A stretch of 64,000 bases of DNA from Candidatus Nomurabacteria bacterium (GCA_023898525.1 CP060227.1:823662-887661); one strand, 5' to 3'; positions 10,568 to 47,294 are shown, counted from the stretch's first letter. Notes: generated by a model not told the origin, from the letters alone. Made by a program: numbers and translations.

Positions 10568-10885
10568 GCGGGGTGAGAAAGTGTCAAAACACTTTCGCAA
10601 GACCTTGCCTAGTATTTCTTGAGGCTACGAAAAGAAATACTGACAAGGTGTACAGATCCTGTAAGGATGAGGAGAGGAAACTTTTTCGTTCCAGATAAGG
10701 TAAAAATAAATACATAGCGTGACTAAGAGAGGTATCGAGCGAGAGAATTATATAGCTCTCATAACCTCCCTGGAGAACGCTTTTGTTTGAGGAGAGGTAA
10801 AAATAAATACATAGCGGGGTAGAGGAGAGGTACCTCGGGAGGCTCATAACCTCCAGACCCCGGTTCGATTCCGGGCCCCGCAACA
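10568..10885 (+). ncRNA. tRNA-like / candidate structured RNA locus: three imperfect tandem repeats (R1-R3) ending in a T-arm plus acceptor. tmRNA is an alternative reading, less well supported
   Basis: AATAAATAC(A/G)TAGCG(G/T)G occurs three times (about 10556, 10704, 10802). CTCATAACCTCC occurs twice. The 3' end is CCCCGGTTCGATTCCGGGCCCCGCA. Strong internal hairpins are present. Confidence 0.35.
10815..10882 (+). ncRNA. Degenerate tRNA-like element with a CAU (Met-type) anticodon loop
   Basis: Acceptor GCGGGG/CCCCGC. D-like stem GAGG/CCTC. Anticodon stem GGAGG/CCTCC with loop CTCATAA. T-arm CCCGG-TTCGATT-CCGGG. It is one nt short at positions 8-9 and has a 6-bp acceptor stem. Confidence 0.4.
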
Positions 10886-11040: not shown

Positions 11041-14000
11041 ATGAATTACTCTATTTATAAAAAACCGCAAACAGCTGGATGTGTAAGTAACTCATTTAAT
11101 TTAGCCATTACTAAAAGTGCGAGTTTTGTTCTCGCACTTCTGCTTATATTAGGGTCGTTAGAAAACGTTTCCTTTGCAGCTGTTCTTACTAATGGCGATG
11201 CTGGATATATTACCAACATTCAAACCCGTGATGGAAGTGATCTGTTTAGATCTGATGTACGAGAGGGAAGTGGTGGATTCTTATACGCATATGACATTCC
11301 CGTCCCACCTGGTGTTAACGGCCTCACCCCGCAAATCTCGCTACAGTACAACAGTCAGGGCAGTTCGGACCAAGATATACTTGGCTATGGTTGGAATCTT
11401 TCTATTCCATACATTGAACGGGTGAACAAACACGGCATCAATAAGCTCTTCGACCCCGCCTACGAAACCTTTTACTCCAGTCTTTCTGGTGAGCTTGTAT
11501 TCGATGGGGTAGATTACCTCACAAAAATCAACCAAGGCGACTTCATGAGATATAGCCGATTAAGTAATGGGTGGGTTGTTACTACAAAAGACGGTACCGA
11601 ATATCACTTTGGTTCTGACGTAGTAGCCCAACAGTCAGACCCGACCGATATCACTAACATTTCTCGTTGGTACCTCAGCTCGATTACTGACACTAACGGC
11701 AATATGGTCTCATATTCATACGTTAAAGACACTGGCGCAATTTATCCTAGTACCATCACTTACGGCCCATACACCATCGTGTTCACAACCGAAGCTGCTC
11801 CCACTCACTCGTCCTATAGTCTTGGCTTTAAGGTTGAACGAGATCAGCGTATCAATGCTATTGAAATAAAGGAAAATACCACAATCTTCACTCGACACGA
11901 CCTAACCTACGCTACTGGTATCAATACTCAACGTGACCTTCTGGAGACAATTACTCAAACTGACGTTATCACCAACACTAGCTTACCGGCGGTGATCTTT
12001 GATTACGGCGGCGAAGAAATTCCTCATTGGCAGAGCGACAGTTCGTTTGTATTCCCAGAGCCAATGGGACTTCAAGACAACGGTGTTCGGTTTGGTGACC
12101 TGAATGGTGATGGTCTTACGGATATGATTCGATACGAACGATACTGGAACGACATTCCCTCTGCACGGTGGACAGCTCGTCGTGTACACATCAATAAAGG
12201 CAATGGTAACTGGGATATAGATGTCCCGTGGAGCTGGGATGATATTGAGACACCGTTCTTCTTACACATTAATGATGGTGTATTCAGTAACACCGATAAG
12301 CGTTACGACATGGGCGCGCGCTTAATCGATGTTAACGGAGATGGGCTAGATGACTTCGTCGCTGCTTACAACTGCCTAGACTGGAGTAGTTCAGACTGTT
12401 CAAATGCACCAAACTATATGAAGGAAATTCTAGGTCCAATCCAAATGGATGTCTACCTGAACTCTGGCTCAGGTTTTGTAAAAGACGGCACTAACTGGTT
12501 AAATTTGCAGGCTATGTCTAGTTGGGATTATTCTCCTGCTGATATGACCAATCCAGGCCGAGCATTTGTTGATGTGAATGCTGACGGCTTACCAGACATT
12601 GTTCAATCAGTCGCTACGCTAAACTTCGGCTCGCATCCAAGTGAAAATGTAGCTTCAAATATTTGGATAAACACGGGTAATGATTGGGAACTTTCATCCC
12701 TTACTCTTCCTGCGGCACTTGCCAAATATCCGTGGCACCCTAGTTACCCAAATCTTCGTAAATTCAGTGACTATGGAACTCGATTTGCTGACGTTAACGA
12801 CGATGGGTTAATCGATGTTTTACGAGGATATCGACAGTCATTCAGTGGTAGCGTTAATACGTATACTGACGAAAAAACTGTATACATCAACACTGGTGAT
12901 GGTTGGGAAGAAGACGTGTCTTGGAACTTACCTGTTGAGTTTGTTATTCAAGATCAAACTTCTGGTTATCAGATGTTTGATTTTAACGGTGATAAACTTC
13001 CAGATATTCTTCAATCGCACTACCATAACAATAATGGTTTTAGTTATAATTTATACCTGAACAAAGGTACTACATGGCATCTTGAGAATTACTCAGTGAA
13101 CAGTACTCACTATCCAGTGTATCCTCAGCCACCTTTCCCGCTTACCAGGACAGCCGCTTATACAGGCGGTGGTGGTACGGCTATGATCGATTTTGATGGT
13201 GATAATCTACTTGACGCCTGGAATCTGTATTATCTAGACTTAGATGAAACTCAAAGCTCCGGTGGGAGTGTTTTCCTAAATACTTCAGATATTCCAGACC
13301 TAGTGACCTCAATCATTGATAAAAGCGGTTCCATTACTTCTATCAACTACGACGGCTACCTTGCTACTGTTCAATCAGACTATGTAAAAGTTGGTAACTC
13401 ACCAGTCAATCCGATAGTGGTCACTCATAAAACCATCGATAATAACCACGGTCACACGGTCACTGAAACATATGAGTACAATGATGCTCATCAGTACGTC
13501 GAGGTGAGCGATATTTTTGATCGCAAATTTGCCGGCTTCGGAAAAGTCACCAAAACCACCGATTTAGGAAAAGAAACCACTTACTACCACCAAGGAAACG
13601 GCGTAGCGACTACAACCGAAGAGGGCATAGATGACGAAGCATTAATCGGGCAGGTTTATCGCACAGAAATAACTGATCTTTCTGACAATCTCTATACACT
13701 TTCTCGTCAAAATTTTGCCACCACTTCACTTGGTAACGGCAGTACGTTTGTAAAACTGGAAAGCGGTCTCAAGCTTGATTACGATGGTGATAGCGACAAG
13801 AAAGCTTCGGCCAACAGCTACACCTACGACAACACCAATGGCTCACTCCTTACCAAAACGGAGTGGGGAGAGGTGAGTGGAAATACTGACGGTACTTTCT
13901 CAGATACCGGTACCGACAAGCAAGTGACAACTATTGAGTACGCTACCAATGCGAACGGTATAGTTCTACCATCCAAGCAAACCTTGACCGACAACTCTGA

Positions 14001-17000
14001 CACCAAAGTCCAAGAGTCTCGCTTCTACTACGATAACCAACCGCTTGGCACAGTTACTCTAGGTAACAAGACCAAAGAAGAGAATTGGCTAGGTGGCAGT
14101 AGTTATACAAACAAACAGTGGACATACAACAGCCTAGGGCTGGTAACCGCCGAAACTGATCCAGATGGTAATACCACCAACTATACTTACGATACCTATA
14201 ACTTATATCCAGCTAGTGTCACCAACGCCCTCAATCAAACCACACAGTACGAGTATGACTATTCTTCCGGGCAAGTAGCGACCACCACTGACGCTAATGG
14301 CAATATTTTTGCCACCACTTACGACGGGTTTGGTCGACCGCTTACCGTTACATCACCTGACCCACAGACCGGTACTCCGGTAGTACAGACCGAGTATGTC
14401 TATACCGATACTCCCGGCAGTGTCAGTGTGCAAAAGAAAGATTATCTAAATAGCGGATTAGTTAAAAACTCGTATACTTTCCTAGATGGCTTTGGCCGAA
14501 AGATGCAGGAAAGGCAAGAAGCGGAAGGAATGGATCAATACGTGGTGCGTGATTATGTCTACGGAAGCAATGATCTTTTGGAAAAAGAGTCACTGCCGTA
14601 CTTTGGTACCGGAGCGGCGAGAAGTGCTTCTACCACCAACGCAAACCTCTTAAGCACCTACGCTTACGATCCATTGGCTAGAGTAACAAGCGTAGCAACT
14701 GTGGTTGGTACGACCACTACCGCCTACGACCAATGGAAAGAAACCGTTACCGATACTGCCGGCAATGATAAGGTATTCCAGTATGACGCTTTTGGTCGAT
14801 TGGCAGCCGTGACCGAAAACGAGGGAACCAATTCATACACTACCAACTACACTTGGAATAATCTCGGTAATCTGACCAAGATAACTGACGCCGAAAGTAA
14901 TGTGCGAAATATAAGTTACGACGGACTTGGTCGCCGTACTAGCCTGGAAGATTTGCATGCACCAAGTGATAGTACTTTTGGAACTTGGACTTTTGCTTAT
15001 GACAACGCTGGCAACCTGACCAGCAAGACTAATCCAGAGAGTCAGACTACCAACTACACCTACGACGCTCTTAATCGCCAGTTGACCGAAGACTACACCG
15101 GACAGACTGGTACGGAAATCACTTATACTTATGATACTTGTACGGGTGGCGTGGGGCAACTTTGTACCGCTGCCAATTCTTCCGCTACCACTAACTACAC
15201 CTACACCCCAAACAACCTCTTGGCTTCAGAAGCTAAAACAATAAGTAGCAATACCTACACCACTAGCTATGAGTATGACCGCCAAGGCAACCAAACACTC
15301 ATTACTTATCCAGATAATTCAGAAGTGAAGTACACCTTTAATAAAGGTGGGCAGGTAGACAAAGTGGAACAAAAAGAGGGTGGGGGAACTTTTGCAAACA
15401 TTGTGAGTAATATTGATTATGGACCACATGGTCAGATGGAAAATATCGAATACGGCAATGGCTCTATAACTACTCGTACTTATGATGCGACCGAACTGTA
15501 CCGATTGAAAAATATCCTCACCACTGCCACCAGTACCTATGGCACCGGCGGTCCGGGAGAGGAGCTTATAAGTATTGAAGCCAAACTGGCTTCACTTACC
15601 ACTGAGCTCCCGCTTGCGACTACCAGTGAAGCCTTGGTGGTGGAGACGGTAGAGGAGCCGGTAGAGGAGATGGTCGCAACTTCTTCTGATCTTGCTATCG
15701 AACCGGCTACTTCAGATTCAACTACTGCAACTTCTACTAATATCGAAGCGACAAGTACAAACCAAGAAATAGCCGAAGCCGAACTCACCTCGACTACAAC
15801 CACAACTGATGAGGTGGTGGAGACTAGCGAAATTGCCACCACCACCACGGTCGCTGCTCCAGACGCGACTACCACTGCGTCTTCGTCGTCTGAAACCGCT
15901 ACCGGTACAGCTGACCAAGTGGTGAGTGTGGTAGAAGCTGATGTGGTATTTGATATACCTACCACCACTGCCACCAGTACTTTACCAGCAGTACCAACAG
16001 CTATTGCTTCTACCAGCAGTAACTCCACACCACCAGTTGCGGAAGCGGTGGTAGTTAATCAGGTAGTGGCTAAAAGCAAGCTAAAGCTAAAAATCAACAA
16101 CGCCCACGAAGCCCGAATGTGGCAAAAATACCACCATGAGCGAGTAGCTGGATTAGAAGCAGAGGGAGCTAATCAGGCTGTGCTTGATAAAGCCAAGTAT
16201 GCTCAGGATCAGTTGGAGTCATACTTAATTGAGGATGGTTATCTAAAAGAAAAAGGTGGAAGCGTAAAAGGACACGCTAAAGATTATGTAGAGAGCCAGG
16301 GTAAGAAACTTATAAGCAAAGTGGTGGACTTTATCTTACCGGATACCGTCCAAGCTTACCTATTTGGGTTAGAAGATTTTGAAAATTGTTCAGCTCTTCC
16401 GTGTACCTTTGACAACAATGTATCTTGGGGAGGGGTTACCCCGGCTTTAGATAACACCAGTAAGGTGGCTGGTGCGGATTCACTAAAAGAAACTGTGACT
16501 GGAGAAGGTTCCGGTGGCTTAGAGTTTGTTGATCAAAACACCGGCGAGATTTATGCTCAGTTTAAGGTATTTATTCCGAGTAATATGACTTGGGGACCTT
16601 CCGGTTATCATGGCATTCTTAGATTTGAAGATACGATCAACAACTCAGTTTTCTGGATGAATGTTGAGGATTGGGGCACAGCCAGACTAACCATGATGGG
16701 AGATGTTCTACCGTGGACTGACACCGGAATTGATTTGGTGAAAGGGGCGGTCAACACTATTGAAGTACGCTTTAAGACTGGAGCCACTAACGGCGATGTA
16801 GATATCTGGCTCAACAACACCAACGAAAGTGCACCTGACTACAACGGAAGTGGTACCCTAAACACCGGTACTGATAATGTTGACTATGTAATCGCCGGAG
16901 TTACTTATACTCCCGAAGCGATTAGTACCACCTACTTCGATGATATTGCTATCGACACTACCTTTATTGGTGAGCTAACTTCAGGTGGCCAACCGCCGGT

Positions 17001-18960
17001 GGTGCCATTTGTTGAGAATGTCCAAAACCTTTCCTATACCTACGACACTGTCGGTAATATTACCGAGATAGTAGACAACAGCGGTACCGACTCCGCCGGT
17101 ACCATCACCTACACCTACGACGACCTCTACCGCCTTATCTCAGCTTCCACTACTAATGCTAGTACTACTCCATACCAAGAAACCTATACCTACAACAGTA
17201 TCGGTAACGTCCTCAGCAAGTCTGATGTTGGTACGTATAGTTATGATGGTGGACAGAGTGGAGGAACCAGCTACTACATCTATGACGATAGCATCACTAC
17301 CGGTTGGACAGACTGGTCTTGGTGGACTACCATCAACCCAAGCGCCACCTCTCCTGTCTACTCAGGACTCTATTCATTGGGGTTAGTATACACCCAACCC
17401 TGGGCTGGTATCTCTTATCACAACAACAGTTTCGACAGCTCACCATATGATAATCTAGAGCTGGCGGTTAATGTCGGTACCGACACTACAGCCAATCTCT
17501 ACCTCTATTTCACCAACAGTGCCAGTACACCTTTTACCATCATTAACCTAAAAGACTACGTCACCGGCGGTTTCCAAGCCAACACCTGGCACAGCCTCAC
17601 CATTCCACTTTCAGACTTAGGTTACCAAAACTATCAAGGCGCCACTGAACTAAACATAGAGACCGACCAAGCCGCGACAGTGAATTTTGACAGTATTCGT
17701 TTGACTAGTACCGGCGGAGGAGGAAGCTACGCCAACCCCCACGCTGCCACCACCATCGGCGGCACCACCTACACCTACGACCAAAACGGTAACCTCCTAA
17801 CCGACGGTAATACCACTAACACCTGGAACTACCGCAACGAACTAACTGAGTCCACAAAAGCAGGAATAACGACCAGCTATGGATATGACCACAATGGTGA
17901 TCGAGTGTTCAAGACTACTTCCGAAGGAACGACTTATTATCCTTTCGCTAATTACGAAATTACTGATACTGGTACTACCACAAAGCACATCTACATGGGT
18001 GACCAATTAGTTGCCACGATTGAAGGTTCTGGTGCTGGAGCGTTGACGTATTACAACCATCTTGATCATCTCGGTGGTACCAGTGTGGTAACCGATGGTA
18101 TTGGAGCTATCACCCAAGAATTGGACTACTACCCATTCGGTGATACGAGGATAGATAATGAGTACGGAGACTTTAGACAACATATTCAGCACTCAGGTCA
18201 CCAGAAAGACGATGAAACAGGACTCATCTACCAAGGTGCACGTTACTATAATTCTGGTATCGGACGATATACATCACAAGATCCAGCAAACTTACGAAAT
18301 CCAGCGCAGTTCCTCTATGACCCACAACAGTTAAATACCTATGCGTATGCAAGGAATAATCCACTGAAGTACATTGATCCTACGGGGGAGAAGATTGAGC
18401 TTGTTTCTAGACCAGTAATTTCTTCTTATGATGCACATATGTTCTATCGAGTTACTCCAGATAATCCAGGCCAGATTTCTATTGATGGAATTCCTCAGGG
18501 CACTGAACAGTTTTCGATAGGGGCTTACAACCGAGGTGGTTTCTTAGGTATCGGCAATAAATTGACTCCAGAGTTTAGTTACGAAGGAGGTCCAGTGAAT
18601 ACTGACACCCCATACTTAAACGGGGAAAAGGCGCCTACAGCAAGTGTTGTTATCACACCACCAAACAACATGTCAGATACAGAGTTTATTAACAGTCTTG
18701 GTGCTTCAGCAAATAGTATCGACAAGACAGGTTATTATATGTTTGGTAAAACTGGTAAATTTGGTGTAGCTAATTCAAATAACTTCGTATACGAAGTTGG
18801 TAATAGGAGTGGTGTTGGTAATCAGGTCAGCTCGTTCAATTCAGGTGCATATACTCCAGGACAGAGTCAAGGAATCCCAACTGCAACATTGCTTGATAAT
18901 ATAAGGTCTAGCCTGAACAGTATTAAGGAGAGATTGTCCAAAAAAGATGATAGCGAATAA
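11041..18960 (+). CDS. Giant secreted polymorphic-toxin protein (2639 aa): signal peptide, SpvB/TcB-like N-terminal domain, FG-GAP-like repeats, RHS/YD repeats, S/T-rich linker plus LamG/CBM-like insert, Rhs core, variable C-terminal toxin domain
   Basis: Signal peptide ASFVLALLLILGS. DxNGDGxxD repeats (FGDLNGDGLTDM, IDVNGDGLDDF, VDVNADGLPDIV...). Many YD repeats (YTYDALNRQ, YEYDRQGNQ, YTYDTVGNI). Rhs core GARYYNSGIGRYTSQDP...NTYAYARNNPLKYIDPTGE, followed by about 200 unique residues. Confidence 0.85.
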   Translation: MNYSIYKKPQTAGCVSNSFNLAITKSASFVLALLLILGSLENVSFAAVLTNGDAGYITNIQTRDGSDLFRSDVREGSGGFLYAYDIPVPPGVNGLTPQISLQYNSQGSSDQDILGYGWNLSIPYIERVNKHGINKLFDPAYETFYSSLSGELVFDGVDYLTKINQGDFMRYSRLSNGWVVTTKDGTEYHFGSDVVAQQSDPTDITNISRWYLSSITDTNGNMVSYSYVKDTGAIYPSTITYGPYTIVFTTEAAPTHSSYSLGFKVERDQRINAIEIKENTTIFTRHDLTYATGINTQRDLLETITQTDVITNTSLPAVIFDYGGEEIPHWQSDSSFVFPEPMGLQDNGVRFGDLNGDGLTDMIRYERYWNDIPSARWTARRVHINKGNGNWDIDVPWSWDDIETPFFLHINDGVFSNTDKRYDMGARLIDVNGDGLDDFVAAYNCLDWSSSDCSNAPNYMKEILGPIQMDVYLNSGSGFVKDGTNWLNLQAMSSWDYSPADMTNPGRAFVDVNADGLPDIVQSVATLNFGSHPSENVASNIWINTGNDWELSSLTLPAALAKYPWHPSYPNLRKFSDYGTRFADVNDDGLIDVLRGYRQSFSGSVNTYTDEKTVYINTGDGWEEDVSWNLPVEFVIQDQTSGYQMFDFNGDKLPDILQSHYHNNNGFSYNLYLNKGTTWHLENYSVNSTHYPVYPQPPFPLTRTAAYTGGGGTAMIDFDGDNLLDAWNLYYLDLDETQSSGGSVFLNTSDIPDLVTSIIDKSGSITSINYDGYLATVQSDYVKVGNSPVNPIVVTHKTIDNNHGHTVTETYEYNDAHQYVEVSDIFDRKFAGFGKVTKTTDLGKETTYYHQGNGVATTTEEGIDDEALIGQVYRTEITDLSDNLYTLSRQNFATTSLGNGSTFVKLESGLKLDYDGDSDKKASANSYTYDNTNGSLLTKTEWGEVSGNTDGTFSDTGTDKQVTTIEYATNANGIVLPSKQTLTDNSDTKVQESRFYYDNQPLGTVTLGNKTKEENWLGGSSYTNKQWTYNSLGLVTAETDPDGNTTNYTYDTYNLYPASVTNALNQTTQYEYDYSSGQVATTTDANGNIFATTYDGFGRPLTVTSPDPQTGTPVVQTEYVYTDTPGSVSVQKKDYLNSGLVKNSYTFLDGFGRKMQERQEAEGMDQYVVRDYVYGSNDLLEKESLPYFGTGAARSASTTNANLLSTYAYDPLARVTSVATVVGTTTTAYDQWKETVTDTAGNDKVFQYDAFGRLAAVTENEGTNSYTTNYTWNNLGNLTKITDAESNVRNISYDGLGRRTSLEDLHAPSDSTFGTWTFAYDNAGNLTSKTNPESQTTNYTYDALNRQLTEDYTGQTGTEITYTYDTCTGGVGQLCTAANSSATTNYTYTPNNLLASEAKTISSNTYTTSYEYDRQGNQTLITYPDNSEVKYTFNKGGQVDKVEQKEGGGTFANIVSNIDYGPHGQMENIEYGNGSITTRTYDATELYRLKNILTTATSTYGTGGPGEELISIEAKLASLTTELPLATTSEALVVETVEEPVEEMVATSSDLAIEPATSDSTTATSTNIEATSTNQEIAEAELTSTTTTTDEVVETSEIATTTTVAAPDATTTASSSSETATGTADQVVSVVEADVVFDIPTTTATSTLPAVPTAIASTSSNSTPPVAEAVVVNQVVAKSKLKLKINNAHEARMWQKYHHERVAGLEAEGANQAVLDKAKYAQDQLESYLIEDGYLKEKGGSVKGHAKDYVESQGKKLISKVVDFILPDTVQAYLFGLEDFENCSALPCTFDNNVSWGGVTPALDNTSKVAGADSLKETVTGEGSGGLEFVDQNTGEIYAQFKVFIPSNMTWGPSGYHGILRFEDTINNSVFWMNVEDWGTARLTMMGDVLPWTDTGIDLVKGAVNTIEVRFKTGATNGDVDIWLNNTNESAPDYNGSGTLNTGTDNVDYVIAGVTYTPEAISTTYFDDIAIDTTFIGELTSGGQPPVVPFVENVQNLSYTYDTVGNITEIVDNSGTDSAGTITYTYDDLYRLISASTTNASTTPYQETYTYNSIGNVLSKSDVGTYSYDGGQSGGTSYYIYDDSITTGWTDWSWWTTINPSATSPVYSGLYSLGLVYTQPWAGISYHNNSFDSSPYDNLELAVNVGTDTTANLYLYFTNSASTPFTIINLKDYVTGGFQANTWHSLTIPLSDLGYQNYQGATELNIETDQAATVNFDSIRLTSTGGGGSYANPHAATTIGGTTYTYDQNGNLLTDGNTTNTWNYRNELTESTKAGITTSYGYDHNGDRVFKTTSEGTTYYPFANYEITDTGTTTKHIYMGDQLVATIEGSGAGALTYYNHLDHLGGTSVVTDGIGAITQELDYYPFGDTRIDNEYGDFRQHIQHSGHQKDDETGLIYQGARYYNSGIGRYTSQDPANLRNPAQFLYDPQQLNTYAYARNNPLKYIDPTGEKIELVSRPVISSYDAHMFYRVTPDNPGQISIDGIPQGTEQFSIGAYNRGGFLGIGNKLTPEFSYEGGPVNTDTPYLNGEKAPTASVVITPPNNMSDTEFINSLGASANSIDKTGYYMFGKTGKFGVANSNNFVYEVGNRSGVGNQVSSFNSGAYTPGQSQGIPTATLLDNIRSSLNSIKERLSKKDDSE

Positions 18961-21705: not shown

Positions 21706-21779
21706 GTCGATGTAGCTCAGTCGGTTAGAGCGTAGCACTCATAAAGCTAAGGTCGGAGGTTCGATCCCTCCCATCGACA
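21706..21779 (+). tRNA. tRNA-Met (anticodon CAT), elongator type; could be tRNA-Ile2(LAU)
   Basis: Cloverleaf: acceptor GTCGATG/CATCGAC, D-arm GCTC-AGTCGGTTA-GAGC, anticodon loop CTCATAA, T-arm GGAGG-TTCGATC-CCTCC. G1-C72 is paired, so it is not an initiator. Confidence 0.85.
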
Positions 21780-22091
21780 CAATGTAGCGAAGCGGAATTG
21801 CGGAGAGGGGAAGCGCAAGGTTTGCGTCTAGCAAACCGAGCAGGGATCGAACGACGGGATGATGTCAGTATACGAGCGAATGAGGCGATAAAACAATGTT
21901 TAAACATAGTTTTATCGCGGCACCATGTATTTTTGTGAGTGAAACTAAACAAAATACACCGGTAACCGTCAGGATGACTTCTTCTATCTTTTCGAAGCGG
22001 GATGCTTTGAAAATTTACAAAATCATGTATAATGCTAGGCACAAACTTTATTTACCGAGGAAAAAGAAGGTTTTTGATAAGTTTGTTGACT

Positions 22092-22721: not shown

Positions 22722-22794
22722 GAGCCGACTCCGAGATTCGAACTCGGGACCTACGGTTTACGATACCGTTGCTCTACCTACTGAGCTAAGTCGG
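22722..22794 (-). tRNA. tRNA-Thr (anticodon CGT)
   Basis: Minus-strand cloverleaf: GCCGACT-TA-GCTC-AGTAGGTA-GAGC-A-ACGGT-ATCGTAA-ACCGT-AGGTC-CCGAG-TTCGAAT-CTCGG-AGTCGGC-T. Confidence 0.85.
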
Positions 22795-22868
22795 CGACGA
22801 ATATAATGTTAGTATAGTCGGACTTTGATTTCAATTGATTTTTTGATAGGATAGGCAAACTGAATATT

Positions 22869-22941
22869 GCCAATGTAGCTCAGTTGGTAGAGCGCGTCCA
22901 TGGTAAGGACGAGGTCTCCGGTTCAATCCCGGACATTGGCT
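22869..22941 (+). tRNA. tRNA-Thr (anticodon GGT)
   Basis: GCCAATG-TA-GCTC-AGTTGGTA-GAGC-G-CGTCC-ATGGTAA-GGACG-AGGTC-TCCGG-TTCAATC-CCGGA-CATTGGC-T. Confidence 0.85.
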
Positions 22942-22946
22942 CAAAA

Positions 22947-29997: not shown

Positions 29998-30068
29998 TGC
30001 CAGATCGTCTAATGGTAGGACTCCAGGTTTTGGTCCTGGCTATCTAGGTTCGAGTCCTAGTCTGGCAG
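29998..30068 (+). tRNA. tRNA-Gln (anticodon TTG)
   Basis: TGCCAGA-TC-GTCT-AATGGTA-GGAC-T-CCAGG-TTTTGGT-CCTGG-CTAT-CTAGG-TTCGAGT-CCTAG-TCTGGCA-G. U1-A72 and G73 are Gln-type. Confidence 0.8.
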
Positions 30069-30125
30069 CGGTGGATGGAAATACAAAATACCTCTTTTGT
30101 GTCTCTCGCTCATTCGAAAGTAGGT

Positions 30126-31663: not shown

Positions 31664-31877
31664 CCATGAGATGTACCTTTTGTAGCAATACAATAGAAGT
31701 TGAGTTGTATACAGGTGATGTTGCTCATAAAAAATGTCAAACTAAAAATATGGTCACAGATAAATAGGGATAACTGGGGTCAGTATCCATTTCCAACCAA
31801 CATCCTCCCAATTAACACAACCACCCATGCACCACCACATGAAACTACAACCAGACATGTTTAGATTCCATCTTTAC

Positions 31878-32420
31878 CCCGCATGCTTGTCATCGGGGGA
31901 AACATTGTCATACTAAACAGTAATGAAAGGTAAACCACAACATATCAAAAAACCACACAACAAAACTCTGTTCATCTATCATCTGGTATGCCCAGTAAAA
32001 TACAGAAGAGATGTATTTACACCACCAATATCAAAAACATTTAAAAACTTATGTTTGGAATTTGGTCCAGCTTACGAGATATACTTTCTTGAAATAGGAA
32101 TAGACGAAGATCATGTACACTTTTTAATACAAACAATTCCAAACATACGTTTCTCTGATACGGTAAAGAAAATAAAAAGCATCACCTCCAATCATCTCTT
32201 TAAAATCCACCCTGAACTAAAAATAAAACTCTGGGGAGGAAAGTTCTGGACTGAAGGTTATTATGCAAATACAGTGGGTAATGCCAGTATGGATATTATT
32301 ACCAATTACGTTAAAAACCAAGGTTATCCCGAATACCAACAGCTACACTCCGCACCAGTTCAGACTTCACTGTTTACTACCTAGTCCAACGCCGATACCC
32401 CGTATGCTTGTCATCGGGGT
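31878..32420 (+). mobile_element. IS200/IS605-family insertion sequence (543 bp) with subterminal hairpins, inserted 3' of TTAC
   Basis: Left hairpin CCCCGCATGCTTGTCATCGGGG (31877-31898). Right hairpin CCCCGTATGCTTGTCATCGGGG (32398-32419). It carries a Y1 tnpA gene. The flanking sequence is ...CTTTAC|. Confidence 0.7.
31923..32384 (+). CDS. IS200/IS605 family transposase TnpA (Y1 HUH)
   Basis: HUH motif DHVHFLIQ. Catalytic Tyr region GYYANTVG. 153 aa. Confidence 0.85.
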   Translation: MKGKPQHIKKPHNKTLFIYHLVCPVKYRRDVFTPPISKTFKNLCLEFGPAYEIYFLEIGIDEDHVHFLIQTIPNIRFSDTVKKIKSITSNHLFKIHPELKIKLWGGKFWTEGYYANTVGNASMDIITNYVKNQGYPEYQQLHSAPVQTSLFTT

Positions 32421-32885
32421 AGTTCATTAGTTTGTTCTGGAACCGAGAAAATTGAAATTCGTTTGCTTGATGAAAAGCGTCAGCAAATTTCCGTGGGTGA
32501 CACTATCACTTTTACAAACGCAGATGAAAAGTCGGACACTGTTTTGGTAAGGGTGGTTGATTTGGTTAGATTCGATACCTTCAAAGATTTGTGTGAAGCT
32601 CATGACCCGATTCTCTATGGGTCTAAAAATACAGAAGAATACCATTTGATGTACAAATACTATTCTGAAGCAGAAGAACAAAAGTATGGTGTACTGGCAA
32701 TACATTTGCAAATAATTTAATACGTGCCGCTAATAATTGTAATTTTGTTATACTAAAACCATGAACAAAGCCGAGAATTCTGGGGTAAGCACGCTCTGGT
32801 ATGGGGGAATCAAGAGATTATCTTTGGTACTGAGACTAGTAACTGTCCGTGGCAATGATTGCTGTAAATATTTCTTTGAGGTTAT

Positions 32886-32910
32886 AAAAAAACGGGCGCG
32901 GCCCGTTTTT
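32886..32910. terminator. Bidirectional rho-independent terminator between convergent genes
   Basis: AAAAAAACGGGCGCGGCCCGTTTTT. Confidence 0.7.
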
Positions 32911-32914
32911 CTAG

Positions 32915-42530: not shown

Positions 42531-44372
42531 ATGAAAATAATAAAATTACTGTTTGACAGAGAACATTGGGTGGAGATCGCAGCGATAGTGGTGGTAGGTT
42601 TGGCTAGTTTACTTTTTTCTCTGGAGATCATATCAATACCAATTTTGGTAGCGGCTATTTTGCTCGGTGCTTACCCAATTGCTAAGGAAGCTCTTCTAGA
42701 CCTGTTTACTAAGAAAAAAATTGGCACCGAGTTATTTATTACGGTAGCGGTGGCGGTCGCTCTCTTGGGTGGGGAGTATCTGGCTGGGGCTGTGGTCTTG
42801 ATGATTATTTTGATCGCTGAATACATTGCTAGTGTTTCGGGAGAAAGAGCTAGGGCGTCAATCCGTGACTTAATTGGTACAGTACCAAAAACCGCTATTA
42901 TTAAATGTGGTGACAAACAACTGACAGTTGACTTAGCTTCGATAAAAATTGACGACATAGTTTTGGTAAGGGCTGGCGATAAGATACCGGTTGATGGGGT
43001 GGTGGTGGCTGGTAACGGGTTTGCTAATCAAGCACCGATTACCGGTGAGAGTTTACCGCAGGGTAAGATGGTTGGTAGCGATGTTTATGCTGGTACCATA
43101 TTGGAGTCTGGCGCTCTTGATATCAGAGTCACTAAGCTAACGGAAGACACGGTTTTCTCGAGAATCATTGCTCTGGTTGAGGAGGCGGAAAGTCGGGAGC
43201 CGTTGATTCAGAAGTTTACTGATCGGGTAGCGACTTGGTTGATTCCAATCGCCTTTGTATTTGTGGCGGTGGTCTATTATTACACTCAAGATATAAAGTT
43301 GATTATCGCGCTGTTGATCTTTACTTCTCCGGCTGAGCTTGGACTAGCTACACCTTTGGTGACTATATCGGCGGTGGCCAGAGCGGCGCGCGAGGGTATA
43401 TTAGTAAAAGGTGGCTTGTATCTTGAAGCTTTGGCTCGGGCTGACACTTTCGTATTTGATAAAACTGGTACTTTGACACTGGGGGACTTGAAGGTAGATA
43501 AGATTCGGGTGTTTGACCGAAATTTTGATGAAAGGGAGGTATTGTCTATTGCTGCAGCGGCCGATAGTCGGTCTGGTCATCCTTTGGCCAAGACTATTGT
43601 TGAGTACGCTAAGGAGATAAATGTTTCGCATATTGCACCGACTGAGTTCGCGGTTTTGGATGGTCGAGGCGTAAAAGCAACTGTTGGCGGTAAACAGGTT
43701 TTGGTTGGAAATGTGACTTTAATGCATGAGAATTCTGTAGATCTGCCGAGTGACGTTAAAATTACTGATGACACGACTGTCTACGTGGCAATGGAGGGTA
43801 AATTGGTCGGGGCTATTTTAATTAGTAGTATTGTCAGGCCGGGAGCAAGAGCGGCTATCCAATCATTAAAAGCTGGCGGGGTGAAAAAAGTGATGATGCT
43901 AACCGGAGACAATGAGGAAGCGGCTAAGAAGATAGCCTCTCAACTAGCGATTGATGAGGTAAGAGCTGATTTATTACCGGAAGATAAAATTAAGATCGTA
44001 GACCAATTGCAGTCCGAAGGTCGGCTGGTAGCGATGGTGGGTGACGGTGTCAATGACGCACCGGCGCTAGCGGCTGCTAGTGTGGGGGTGGCTATGGGTT
44101 CAGTCGGGACCGGGTCAGCGATGGAGGCCGCCGATATAGTCTTAGTAAATGATGATCTGGAGAAACTGGCTCACGCTCGAGCAATCAGTAGCCGGGCTTA
44201 TAAAACAATTCGAGAAAACATTTTTGTTGGAGTTGGAGTGGTGCATGTGGTGGGAATTATTCTGGTTTTAACTCATGTGATCGGTCCGATTCAGGCGGCA
44301 ATTATTCACTTGGTGCCTGATACTTTAGTGTTTTTGAATTCTATTAAGTTACTGAAAGTTAAAATTTACTAA
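42531..44372 (+). CDS. P1B-type heavy-metal P-type ATPase with variant TM6 motif SPA (no N-terminal metal-binding domain)
   Basis: DKTGTLT, GDGVNDAPAL and TGES motifs. TM6 reads FTSPAELGLATP instead of CPC. Confidence 0.75.
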   Translation: MKIIKLLFDREHWVEIAAIVVVGLASLLFSLEIISIPILVAAILLGAYPIAKEALLDLFTKKKIGTELFITVAVAVALLGGEYLAGAVVLMIILIAEYIASVSGERARASIRDLIGTVPKTAIIKCGDKQLTVDLASIKIDDIVLVRAGDKIPVDGVVVAGNGFANQAPITGESLPQGKMVGSDVYAGTILESGALDIRVTKLTEDTVFSRIIALVEEAESREPLIQKFTDRVATWLIPIAFVFVAVVYYYTQDIKLIIALLIFTSPAELGLATPLVTISAVARAAREGILVKGGLYLEALARADTFVFDKTGTLTLGDLKVDKIRVFDRNFDEREVLSIAAAADSRSGHPLAKTIVEYAKEINVSHIAPTEFAVLDGRGVKATVGGKQVLVGNVTLMHENSVDLPSDVKITDDTTVYVAMEGKLVGAILISSIVRPGARAAIQSLKAGGVKKVMMLTGDNEEAAKKIASQLAIDEVRADLLPEDKIKIVDQLQSEGRLVAMVGDGVNDAPALAAASVGVAMGSVGTGSAMEAADIVLVNDDLEKLAHARAISSRAYKTIRENIFVGVGVVHVVGIILVLTHVIGPIQAAIIHLVPDTLVFLNSIKLLKVKIY

Positions 44373-45284: not shown

Positions 45285-47294
45285 ATGGAGCACGTACATC
45301 ATAGCGGGCATGGACATGGTTCTGGAACGGGTCATGGTTCTGCCGAGATTTTTTTGAAACGATTTTGGGTCGTAACTTTTTTGTTGATTCCACTGGTGTT
45401 CGCTAACCAGATGGTAATGCAGGCAGTAGGGCTTCAGGCTCATACTCTAAGTAAGTGGTTTGGTTTTTTTATTGCGACGGTGATATTTGGCTTTGCCTTA
45501 GTTTTTTTTGAACACGCTTGGCACGAGATAAAGGCTAAGCAGTACGGCATGATGACGTTGGTGTCGCTGGCGGTGGGAGCTGGGTATTTATTTTCGGTAG
45601 TGGCGACTTTTGTGTCAACACTTGAGGCTGATTTTTATTTAGAAATATCAACGCTTATTTGGGTGCTGATGTTTGGTCACTACCTGGAAGCCAGGTCGGG
45701 AGCGGCGGCGGGTAATGCTTTGTCAGAAGTAGCGAAGCTTCTGCCTAAAAAGGCGCATCGTTTGATTGGTGATAGAGAGGAGGAGATTGAGATAAGTGAG
45801 CTCAAGGTTGATGATTTGGTCCTGGTAAAACCGGGTGAAAAAATTCCAGCTGACGGTGTGGTTTCGTTGGGTGTAGCAAATGTTAACGAAGCTCTAATTA
45901 GTGGTGAGTCAAAGCCGTTGTCAAAAAAGGCTGGAGACGAAGTGGTGGCTGGGTCTATTTGTCTTGATGGTTCTTTAACTATCCGTCTAACTAGGGTCGG
46001 TGAACATTCAACTATCGGTCAGATTAAAAATTTGATCGCTAAGGCAGAAATGACTAAGCCTAAGTCACAACGGCTGGCCGACAAAGCGGCGGCAATTTTG
46101 ACCGCGGTGGCGGCTATTACTGCACTTTTGACTGTTTTGGTGTGGTCGCTAATTTTAGGTGAGACTTTTGTTTTCTCAATTACACTCGCTATTACAGTTT
46201 TGGTGATTGCGTGTCCACATGCGCTTGGGTTGGCGATACCAACAGTCACTACCATAACCACCTCAATTGCAATTAAAAGCGGCTTTTTTATCAAAAATCT
46301 AGCCAAGCTAGAAGTACTGAAAAAGGTCAACTATGTTGTGTTTGATAAGACGGGTACTCTAACGACTGGAGAATTTGGTGTAAATGAAGTGGTGGCGGTT
46401 GGTGACGAAGTTGAAGCTAATGTATTAGCAGTAGCGGCATCGTTAGAACAACATTCATCGCATATTATCGGTCAGTCAATAGTAGCAGATGCAAAAAATA
46501 AGAACTTGCAGCTTCATCAAATTTTGAATTTCAAAAATATCGCCGGTAAGGGTGTACAAGCTGAGATAGATGAGGAGATATACGTGGTCGGTAACGTGGC
46601 TATGATGGAATCTTTTGGCGTCGAAATTGAAACTGTGAAAGAAAAATATATAGAATTATCGAGCAAAGGTAAGACGGTGGTGTTTGTGGCTAAACAAAAA
46701 AAGATAATCGGTCTTATCGTCTTGTCTGACGCTATTAAAAAAGAAGCTTTTCTGGCGGTTGAACGTTTACACGGTTTGGGTGTGAAGGTGGCTATGTTGA
46801 CTGGCGATAATCAAGCGGTAGCCAAAGCCGTAGCTGAAGAGTTAAAAATTGATACGTACTTCGCCGAAGTTTTGCCGGAAGATAAATACCAGCATATTAA
46901 GTCTCTGCAAGAAAGAGGTGGAGTAGTGGTGATGGTGGGTGATGGTGTAAACGACGCTCCGGCTTTGACTCAGTCTGATGTCGGAGTGGCAATCGGCGCT
47001 GGGACAGATGTGGCGGTGGAGGCTGGAGATGTGGTGTTGACCCGCAACAATCCGGAGGATGTGGCTCGACTCATAATCTTGGCCAAAAAAGTTTATGTAA
47101 AAATGGTACAGAATTTAGTGTGGGCACTTGGTTACAATATCATTGCTATTCCAGCGGCGGCTGGTGTGTTCGCTAGTCAATTTTTCTTTGGCGGTTTTCT
47201 TTTAAGACCGGAAATCGGTGCTTTAATAATGAGTCTCTCGACAGTAATAGTTGTAGCTAATGCTCTATTGTTGAAGCGAGTCAATCTTAAGTAG
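45285..47294 (+). CDS. CopB-type (P1B-3) copper-transporting P-type ATPase with a His-rich N-terminus
   Basis: N-terminus MEHVHHSGHGHGSGTGHGS. CPH motif in TM6 (IACPHALGLAIP). DKTGTLT. GDGVNDAPAL. Confidence 0.8.
   Translation: MEHVHHSGHGHGSGTGHGSAEIFLKRFWVVTFLLIPLVFANQMVMQAVGLQAHTLSKWFGFFIATVIFGFALVFFEHAWHEIKAKQYGMMTLVSLAVGAGYLFSVVATFVSTLEADFYLEISTLIWVLMFGHYLEARSGAAAGNALSEVAKLLPKKAHRLIGDREEEIEISELKVDDLVLVKPGEKIPADGVVSLGVANVNEALISGESKPLSKKAGDEVVAGSICLDGSLTIRLTRVGEHSTIGQIKNLIAKAEMTKPKSQRLADKAAAILTAVAAITALLTVLVWSLILGETFVFSITLAITVLVIACPHALGLAIPTVTTITTSIAIKSGFFIKNLAKLEVLKKVNYVVFDKTGTLTTGEFGVNEVVAVGDEVEANVLAVAASLEQHSSHIIGQSIVADAKNKNLQLHQILNFKNIAGKGVQAEIDEEIYVVGNVAMMESFGVEIETVKEKYIELSSKGKTVVFVAKQKKIIGLIVLSDAIKKEAFLAVERLHGLGVKVAMLTGDNQAVAKAVAEELKIDTYFAEVLPEDKYQHIKSLQERGGVVVMVGDGVNDAPALTQSDVGVAIGAGTDVAVEAGDVVLTRNNPEDVARLIILAKKVYVKMVQNLVWALGYNIIAIPAAAGVFASQFFFGGFLLRPEIGALIMSLSTVIVVANALLLKRVNLK

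Follow-up and report, generated by a model that had tools for sequence, protein, structure and literature searches.

Among described insertion sequences, the closest counterparts of the element reported here are IS200 of Salmonella and E. coli and IS1541 of Yersinia, which carry tnpA as their sole gene, encoding a Y1 HUH transposase of ~150 aa, and have no tnpB. Both lack terminal inverted repeats, possess subterminal hairpins, and occur as multiple near-identical copies. Elements of the IS200 group in ISfinder measure 600-750 bp. IS200 itself, at 707 bp, has been called the smallest fully autonomous IS known (PMC4513863). Two further members of the IS200/IS605 family, IS608 of Helicobacter pylori and ISDra2 of Deinococcus radiodurans, carry tnpB; IS608 inserts at TTAC and ends in TCAA, while the ISDra2 target, TTGAT, exceeds four bases. 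The guide and cleavage tetranucleotides of IS608 are AAAG/TTAC at the left end and GAAT/TCAA at the right (PMC5934647), and the top strand of family elements, including IS608 and ISDra2, is reported on the lagging-strand template (PMC5027513).

Here we describe an element from Candidatus Nomurabacteria that, by every defining feature legible in its sequence, belongs to the IS200 group of the IS200/IS605 family. It resembles IS200 and IS1541 in gene content, in its ends, and in occurring as near-identical copies. It differs from them in having a CPR bacterium as host, in a transposase less than 40% identical to phage-borne and other IS200-type transposases, and in the absence of any match to Rfam, including its IS200-related RNA families. 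It is also shorter, at 561 bp against the 707 bp of IS200, and its tnpA ATG lies only 55 nt from the left end, a leader with no room for the long structured 5' UTR and antisense art200 region of IS200. TnpA aligns with that of IS608 in fold and catalytic residues (2A6M/2VJV), and as in IS608 the palindromes are imperfect with an unpaired base, the putative cleavage sites lie outside the hairpins, and the index-wise guide pairing is similar. In contrast to IS608, there is no tnpB, the flank and terminus read TA(N)ATT and TTCATT, each putative cleavage site is 9 nt away from its hairpin, and TTAC is internal. ISDra2 provides the closest solved TnpA structure (2XM3) and likewise has a target of more than four bases, but its target and hairpin sequences are different and it carries tnpB. 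REP/RAYT systems also combine a hairpin with a tetranucleotide on the 5' side of its foot, and a solo hairpin is present in a Patescibacteria MAG, whereas the transposase here is of the IS200 class and the gene moves with its two hairpins.

We conclude with considerable confidence that the element is a 561-bp IS200-group insertion in codon 10 of a 106-aa ASCH gene, the precise excision of which would restore the gene. What is new is the structure of the element; the transposase gene itself is ordinary and already auto-annotated. Its distinguishing features are its size, a six-position flank signature, and the CPR host, with size the mildly notable point.

Results

The DNA analyzed (the window) is a 64,000-nt stretch of a ~1.09-Mb Patescibacteria/CPR genome assigned to Candidatus Nomurabacteria (GenBank contig of 1,087,875 bp). 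Its genes lie mostly on the + strand and include five tRNA genes, pyrG, and a gene for an NAD-dependent ligase, and the cumulative GC skew rises steadily. The whole window is on one replichore with strongly co-oriented genes: 50 of the 57 ORFs of at least 120 aa are on the + strand, and the cumulative skew rises monotonically over positions 1-64000. The tRNA genes (Met twice, Thr-CGT, Thr-GGT, and Gln) are located at 10813-10884, 21706-21780, 22722-22795 (- strand), 22869-22942, and 29998-30069. Because tRNA-Thr(CGT) is ~84% identical to the tRNA-Thr of large Escherichia and Aeromonas phages, a phage origin was briefly suggested. Descent of the window from a jumbo phage was dropped in view of pyrG, the NAD-dependent ligase, and the GenBank name, and when 22 kb of context was compared with phages by megablast, the tRNA genes were the only matches. 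The window comes from a small Patescibacteria chromosome rather than from a phage.

The 561-bp unit contains a single ORF, an intact tnpA located between two hairpins (Table 1). The encoded protein matches Pfam Y1_Tnp (PF01797) with an E-value of 9e-35 (119.8 bits, cutoff 23) and the NCBIfam IS200/IS605 transposase model NF033573 with 120.8 bits (cutoff 55). ISDra2 TnpA (2XM3) was the best-scoring solved TnpA, with an E-value of 1.7e-16, and IS608 TnpA (2A6M) also aligned; in these alignments the catalytic residues H64-V-H66, Y129, and Q133 correspond to the DHVH and Y(I/V)xxQ motifs (Y-I-E-S-Q in 2XM3). Neither tnpB nor iscB is present, and the neighboring genes encode the ASCH protein, an uncharacterized 189-aa protein, and a PNPOx-like protein. 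The assignment to the IS200/IS605 family proposed in an earlier reading of the sequence alone (hereafter the sequence-only reading) is upheld, as is the absence of tnpB, which that reading had suggested checking. Four NCBI accessions carry this TnpA, from MAG GCA_020632175.1 and a 1,087,875-bp contig (MCB9810579.1, MCB9810799.1, MCB9811045.1, and USN87544.1), and its name there is already "IS200/IS605 family transposase". Upstream of tnpA, a promoter-like site overlaps the left hairpin and could possibly yield a nearly leaderless tnpA mRNA, which would explain the very short left end. Since promoter-like sites in the region are not more numerous than in shuffled sequence, this candidate is a weak lead.

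Table 1. Features of the element and of the interrupted gene (coordinates count from the first letter of the window)
Feature	Position	Strand	Description
ASCH gene, 5' fragment	31839-31867	+	Encodes MKLQPDMFR from its ATG; ends 2 nt into the following codon
Target / left cleavage-site sequence TAGATT	31862-31867	+	Stays in the left flank; cleavage inferred after the last T
Left-end tip CCATCTTTA	31868-31876	+	9 nt; conserved in copies
Presumed left guide tetranucleotide G_L, TTTA	31873-31876	+	Role by analogy with IS608 (PMC5934647)
Left subterminal imperfect palindrome	31877-31898	+	CCCCG-C-ATG CTTGT CAT CGGGG; C bulged at position 6
Promoter-like site TTGTCA-16-TGnCATACT	31887-31914	+	Overlaps left hairpin; ends 8 nt before tnpA ATG
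tnpA	31923-32384	+	Y1 HUH transposase, 153 aa, intact; between the two hairpins
Presumed right guide tetranucleotide G_R, GATA	32394-32397	+	Assigned by position; conserved in all relatives; role inferred
Right subterminal imperfect palindrome	32398-32419	+	CCCCG-T-ATG CTTGT CAT CGGGG; T bulged at position 6
Right-end tip TAGTTCATT	32420-32428	+	Presumed right cleavage site CATT at 32425-32428
ASCH gene, 3' fragment	32429-32720	+	From third base of codon 10 to stop 32718-32720
Residual TTG-initiated ORF	32463-32720	+	85 aa; GenBank hypothetical protein H6779_04205 / USN87582.1

The element lies within the 5' end of an ASCH-domain gene and in the same orientation. The start of that gene, which reads ATG AAA CTA CAA CCA GAC ATG TTT AG... 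at 31839, now continues into the IS and terminates at a TAA codon (31914-31916), giving a 25-residue peptide. Removal of 561 bp (31868-32428) yields MKLQPDMFRLVCSGTEK..., a 106-aa protein that matches Pfam ASCH (PF04266) with 28.6 bits (cutoff 21.2) across profile positions 1-101 of 103. The sequence-only reading had proposed looking for an uninterrupted ASCH ortholog in related strains; when the reconstructed protein was used as the query, full-length, uninterrupted homologues were recovered (P0002-P0019). The homologue alignment comprised 17 proteins, 35-61% identical, of which 15 carry a precomputed PF04266 match. Their N-termini follow the pattern M..MKLQPEPF..G.K.IEIRL, matched in the window by MKLQP, and the alignment shows that the two halves belong to one gene; neither half has acquired a stop codon or a frameshift.

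The residual TTG-initiated ORF, which the sequence-only reading thought might still express the C-terminal fragment, is real as an ORF and is annotated in GenBank. It begins at family position L21 and lacks three residues of the N-terminal G..E.R strand, namely G13 and E18, which are invariant in the family, and R20, which is nearly so; the ASCH function has thus most likely been lost. Alone, the 85-aa ORF has no match in Pfam, ASCH included, and no Shine-Dalgarno-like sequence was seen by eye upstream of its TTG; together with the missing residues, these observations make its functional expression unlikely.

To define the extent of the element, we combined an alignment of its copies with HMM-scored fusions of the interrupted gene. 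A search for other copies, also suggested by the sequence-only reading, showed that the identical TnpA is encoded on four contigs, including two other, unrelated loci of MAG GCA_020632175.1 (L001 and L002) and an ENA contig (L003), and a metagenome scan with TnpA recovered 73 related loci. The copies, at least 3-4 in number, differ by 1-3 nt of 561 (~99.5% identical or better), and the window, L001, and L002 are 2 nt apart in each pairing. These differences aside, L001, L002, and L003 are identical to the window from (ATT)CCATCTTTACCCCG... on the left to ...CGGGGTAGTTCATT on the right, and the sequences outside are unrelated. The common sequence therefore starts with CCATCTTTAC... at 31868 (or at 31865, if the ATT is included) and ends with ...GGGGTAGTTCATT at 32428. 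The right terminus GGGGT(A/T)GTTCATT, with divergence directly 3' of it, was found in 24 of 25 copies among the window and L001-L023; in this count the right flank of the L007 copy ends early at a contig end. More distant relatives (L005-L018), with TnpA 78-88% identical, have the same layout and measure 561-562 bp where a contig spans both ends.

These boundaries differ from those of the sequence-only reading, which had put the element at 31878-32420 (543 bp), ends that would place the hairpins at its very tips, with insertion directly 3' of TTAC according to the IS608 rule. TTAC is indeed found at 31874-31877, and the 543-bp deletion does fuse the gene in frame, to a product of 112 aa rather than the 113 aa claimed that passes the Pfam ASCH threshold (26.6 bits, cutoff 21.2). 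However, copies at unrelated loci also agree over the 10-13 nt preceding 31878 and the 8 nt following 32420, so TTAC is internal and the hairpins lie 9 nt inside the tips at each end. In all relatives, moreover, TTAC corresponds to the conserved left end, being composed of TA and the first C's of the hairpin, and what precedes the element is TA(N)ATT. Compared with every one of the 17 homologues, the 543-bp fusion is also longer by six residues (FHLYSS), and it receives the lowest score from the homologue HMM (n=17), 129.3 bits compared with 138.9 bits for the 561-bp fusion. We therefore consider it highly improbable that the element has these ends, which would predict an empty site of CATCTTTACAGTTCATTAG.

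The trinucleotide ATT recurs at the two junctions (31865-31867 and 32426-32428), and as a result an identical empty site would be produced by removing 31865-32425, 31866-32426, 31867-32427, or 31868-32428. Of these registers we chose the last, because in this family the flank retains the target sequence and the element includes its own right cleavage site. Since the base at -4 is variable and must be flank DNA, the question of length narrows to whether the invariant ATT is flank, giving 561 bp, or element, giving 564 bp (31865-32428). The longer element would be the same IS200-group insertion, start with ATTCC, and be inserted 3' of T-A-N (TAG). It would account for the presence of ATT before CC in 13 of 14 sites, as expected of element sequence, and its excision is likewise in frame. 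The spacing of the interrupted protein argues against it: in all 17 homologues the number of residues from MKLQ to the invariant glycine is that of the 561-bp excision product, whereas the 564-bp product is one residue shorter and scores 134.2 bits with the homologue HMM against 138.9. A second argument comes from L023, a member of a sister subgroup with TnpA 77% identical, in which a right end directly abuts a left end (...GGGGTAGTTCATT|CCTAAATATT...). Here CC follows the right end without intervening ATT, which places the left tip at CC. Furthermore, a 564-bp element would have the sole variable position as the base directly 5' of its cut, its target would be unlike its right-end terminus, and TTTA could not pair with TTAN. 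With ATT as flank, by comparison, the left TA-N-ATT resembles the element's own right terminus, TT-C-ATT. On these grounds we regard the 564-bp element, for which the empty site would read ATGTTTAGATTAGTTTG (donor joint ATGTTTAGAGTTTGTTC) and the circle junction GTTCATTCCATC, as unlikely, and we adopt 561 bp, a choice that draws on the protein spacing (a 4.7-bit difference), the sister-subgroup junction, and analogy. The 561-bp element predicts a donor joint, or empty site, of ATGTTTAGATTAGTTTGTTCTGG and a circle junction of ...GTTCATT|CCATCTTTACCCC..., i.e., GGGGTAGTTCATTCCATCTTTACCCCG.

The junction in L023 (positions 1-80), where the right end of one copy abuts the next left end as ...GTTCATT|CCTAAATATTCTCCGC..., could have arisen by tandem insertion at the CATT terminus of the element itself, or it could be a circle junction captured in the assembly. 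In the same subgroup the left and right hairpins are unlike each other (CTCCGC...GCGGAG versus CCCCGT...CGGGG).

No terminal inverted repeats were found; both ends instead carry a subterminal imperfect palindrome on the same strand. The underlying 22-nt motif, CCCCGYATGCTTGTCATCGGGG, i.e., CCCCG(C/T)ATGCTTGTCATCGGGG, which the sequence-only reading had recognized at both ends, occurs exactly twice in the 64 kb, both times on the + strand, while shuffled sequence contained no match even at up to 3 mismatches. As single-stranded DNA, both motifs fold into hairpins whose stem has 5+3 bp and in which the pyrimidine at position 6 stays unpaired, and the TA/TA flanks of the right hairpin add 2 bp to its stem. 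Folding energies are -7.9 kcal/mol (z -2.7) for the left segment (31860-31905, 46 nt) and -8.2 kcal/mol (z -2.9) for the right segment (32388-32432, 45 nt).

The left flank was compared across 14 independent sites, of which 11 are independent metagenome insertions of related elements and the others nearly identical copies that occupy unrelated loci in the same organism. T is found at -6 in 14/14 sites, A at -5 in 13/14, any base at -4, A at -3 in 13/14, and T at both -2 and -1 in 14/14, giving the consensus T-A-N-A-T-T, after which the element starts with CCA.... Beyond GTTCATT the right flanks of these sites are random. Because ATT is invariant and also forms the last 3 nt of the conserved terminus TTCATT, it does not appear to be a duplicated random target. 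Described targets of ISDra2 and IS608 are 4-5 nt, whereas six flank positions are conserved here. The hexamer TANATT occurs 94 times on the + strand of the 64-kb window and 107 times on its - strand, so targets are plentiful.

By analogy with IS608, the tetranucleotides at the feet of the two hairpins, TTTA and GATA, may act as guides. When TTTA is aligned index-wise with (G/A)ATT and GATA with CATT, the first and fourth bases pair at both ends, the third gives a homo-mismatch at both, and the second pairs at the left end only. This pattern mirrors that of AAAG/TTAC and GAAT/TCAA in IS608, a likeness that is suggestive only. Covariation between guide position 1 (T or A among relatives) and target position -4 was non-significant (Fisher p = 0.28), and the guide rule could not be fitted to the subgroup L019-L023.

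In a different Patescibacteria MAG (WFTF01000050.1; L004:428-467), a hairpin copy occurs alone, with an extended perfect stem (AATGAACTACCCCGTATGCTTGTCATCGGGGTAGTTCATT) and no nearby tnpA. The segment L004:420-475 (56 nt) folds with -16.3 kcal/mol (z -7.9). This solo hairpin, in another CPR genome, could be a miniature element or else a relic, either REP-like or derived from a right end; it was the single solo hairpin in a hairpin scan of genome contigs. Its existence, along with a weak match of TnpA to the NF047646 model (REP_Tyr_transpos), would be compatible with a domesticated REP-associated tyrosine transposase (RAYT/TnpA-REP) accompanied by REP-like hairpins, a REPtron rather than a mobile IS. 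That match, though, reaches 23.2 bits where the cutoff is 80, as opposed to 120.8 bits (cutoff 55) for the IS200 model. The whole 561-bp unit, extending beyond the hairpins, is present at several unrelated loci with 1-3 differences, it interrupts a gene, and just two hairpins occur within 64 kb. A domesticated system thus has very little probability, and we retain the interpretation as a mobile IS200-group element.

That the copies are only 1-3 nt apart indicates recent activity of the element. The insertion itself is present beyond the window: both junctions are independently assembled in Logan contigs of SRR12358676 (L081 and L082), each of which ends inside an IS hairpin and so carries the same insertion, and the left junction is also present in L003. 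The undamaged ASCH halves and the copy identity of ~99.5% or better mark the insertion as recent, in agreement with the precise, recent insertion into the 5' end of the ASCH gene envisaged by the sequence-only reading. No empty site of this or any other copy was recovered from the hairpin scan of genome contigs, exact look-ups of neighboring proteins, or homologue loci. The intact homologue P0006 (loci L078-L080) is an uninterrupted gene in another neighborhood, and for this reason synteny offers no DNA-level empty site. BLASTN of the element against plasmid and phage collections gave no match. Two pairs of contigs, L003 and the window (31839-32440) and L019 and L022, share a common left flank and have unlike right flanks; chimeric assembly through the repeat, or rearrangement mediated by the IS within the populations, could account for this.

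Discussion

The arrangement of the element suggests a transposition cycle modeled on that of IS608 and ISDra2. TnpA dimers would bind both hairpins on the single-stranded top strand and would cut after TAGATT (31867|31868) and after the terminal TTCATT of the element (32428|32429). The cleavage tetranucleotides, NATT on the left and CATT on the right, would probably be positioned by TTTA and GATA at the hairpin feet. The ends would then be joined into a single-stranded circle, with precise resealing of the donor, and the circle would re-insert 3' of another TA(N)ATT without target duplication. According to the cumulative GC skew of the window, the top strand of the element is the G-rich strand, i.e., the lagging-strand template, as in the reported cases; this is one observation, and the GC skew of the short metagenomic flanks of other copies was small and mixed.

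With its ends and target defined, the element can be masked or registered, and the 85-aa hypothetical protein H6779_04205 can be annotated as the C-terminal remnant of an ASCH protein whose gene the IS has disrupted. As a minor point for transposon biology, a reduced CPR genome of ~1.1 Mb harbors a compact and apparently active IS200-type element. Its size is below that of the textbook smallest IS, and its target differs from those of the IS608 and ISDra2 models and is longer. The element could possibly serve as a minimal system for the guide and target rules of Y1 transposases; it represents no new kind of biology. More tentatively, and with rather less than even confidence, we suggest that it may be the type example of an undescribed Patescibacteria-associated IS200-group lineage, in which an IS of 561-562 bp would be the shortest autonomous one and would combine a possibly leaderless tnpA, hairpins 9 nt from the tips, a six-position target, and REP-like solo-hairpin derivatives.

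Several minor observations concern relatives of the element and its surroundings. In L025 (~975-1060), where TnpA is 71% identical, the loop and inner stem of the right-end hairpin are inverted (CCCCGATGCAAGCATACGGGG), and the inverted hairpin sits within an extended palindrome, ATATGAACTA...TAGTTCATAT. Between the ASCH gene of the window and the 189-aa gene that converges on it lies an inverted repeat (AAAAAACGGGCGCGGCCCGTTTTT, 32889-32911), GC-rich and bordered on each side by runs of A and T. It looks like a bidirectional terminator, although a simple scan did not report it. One ORF of 2639 aa (11041-18960, + strand) is by far the largest in the window. Finally, two neighboring + strand genes at 42531-44372 and 45285-47294 encode paralogous large proteins that match the PHROG ATPase family phrog_12316 with E-values of 4e-100 and 2e-107, respectively.
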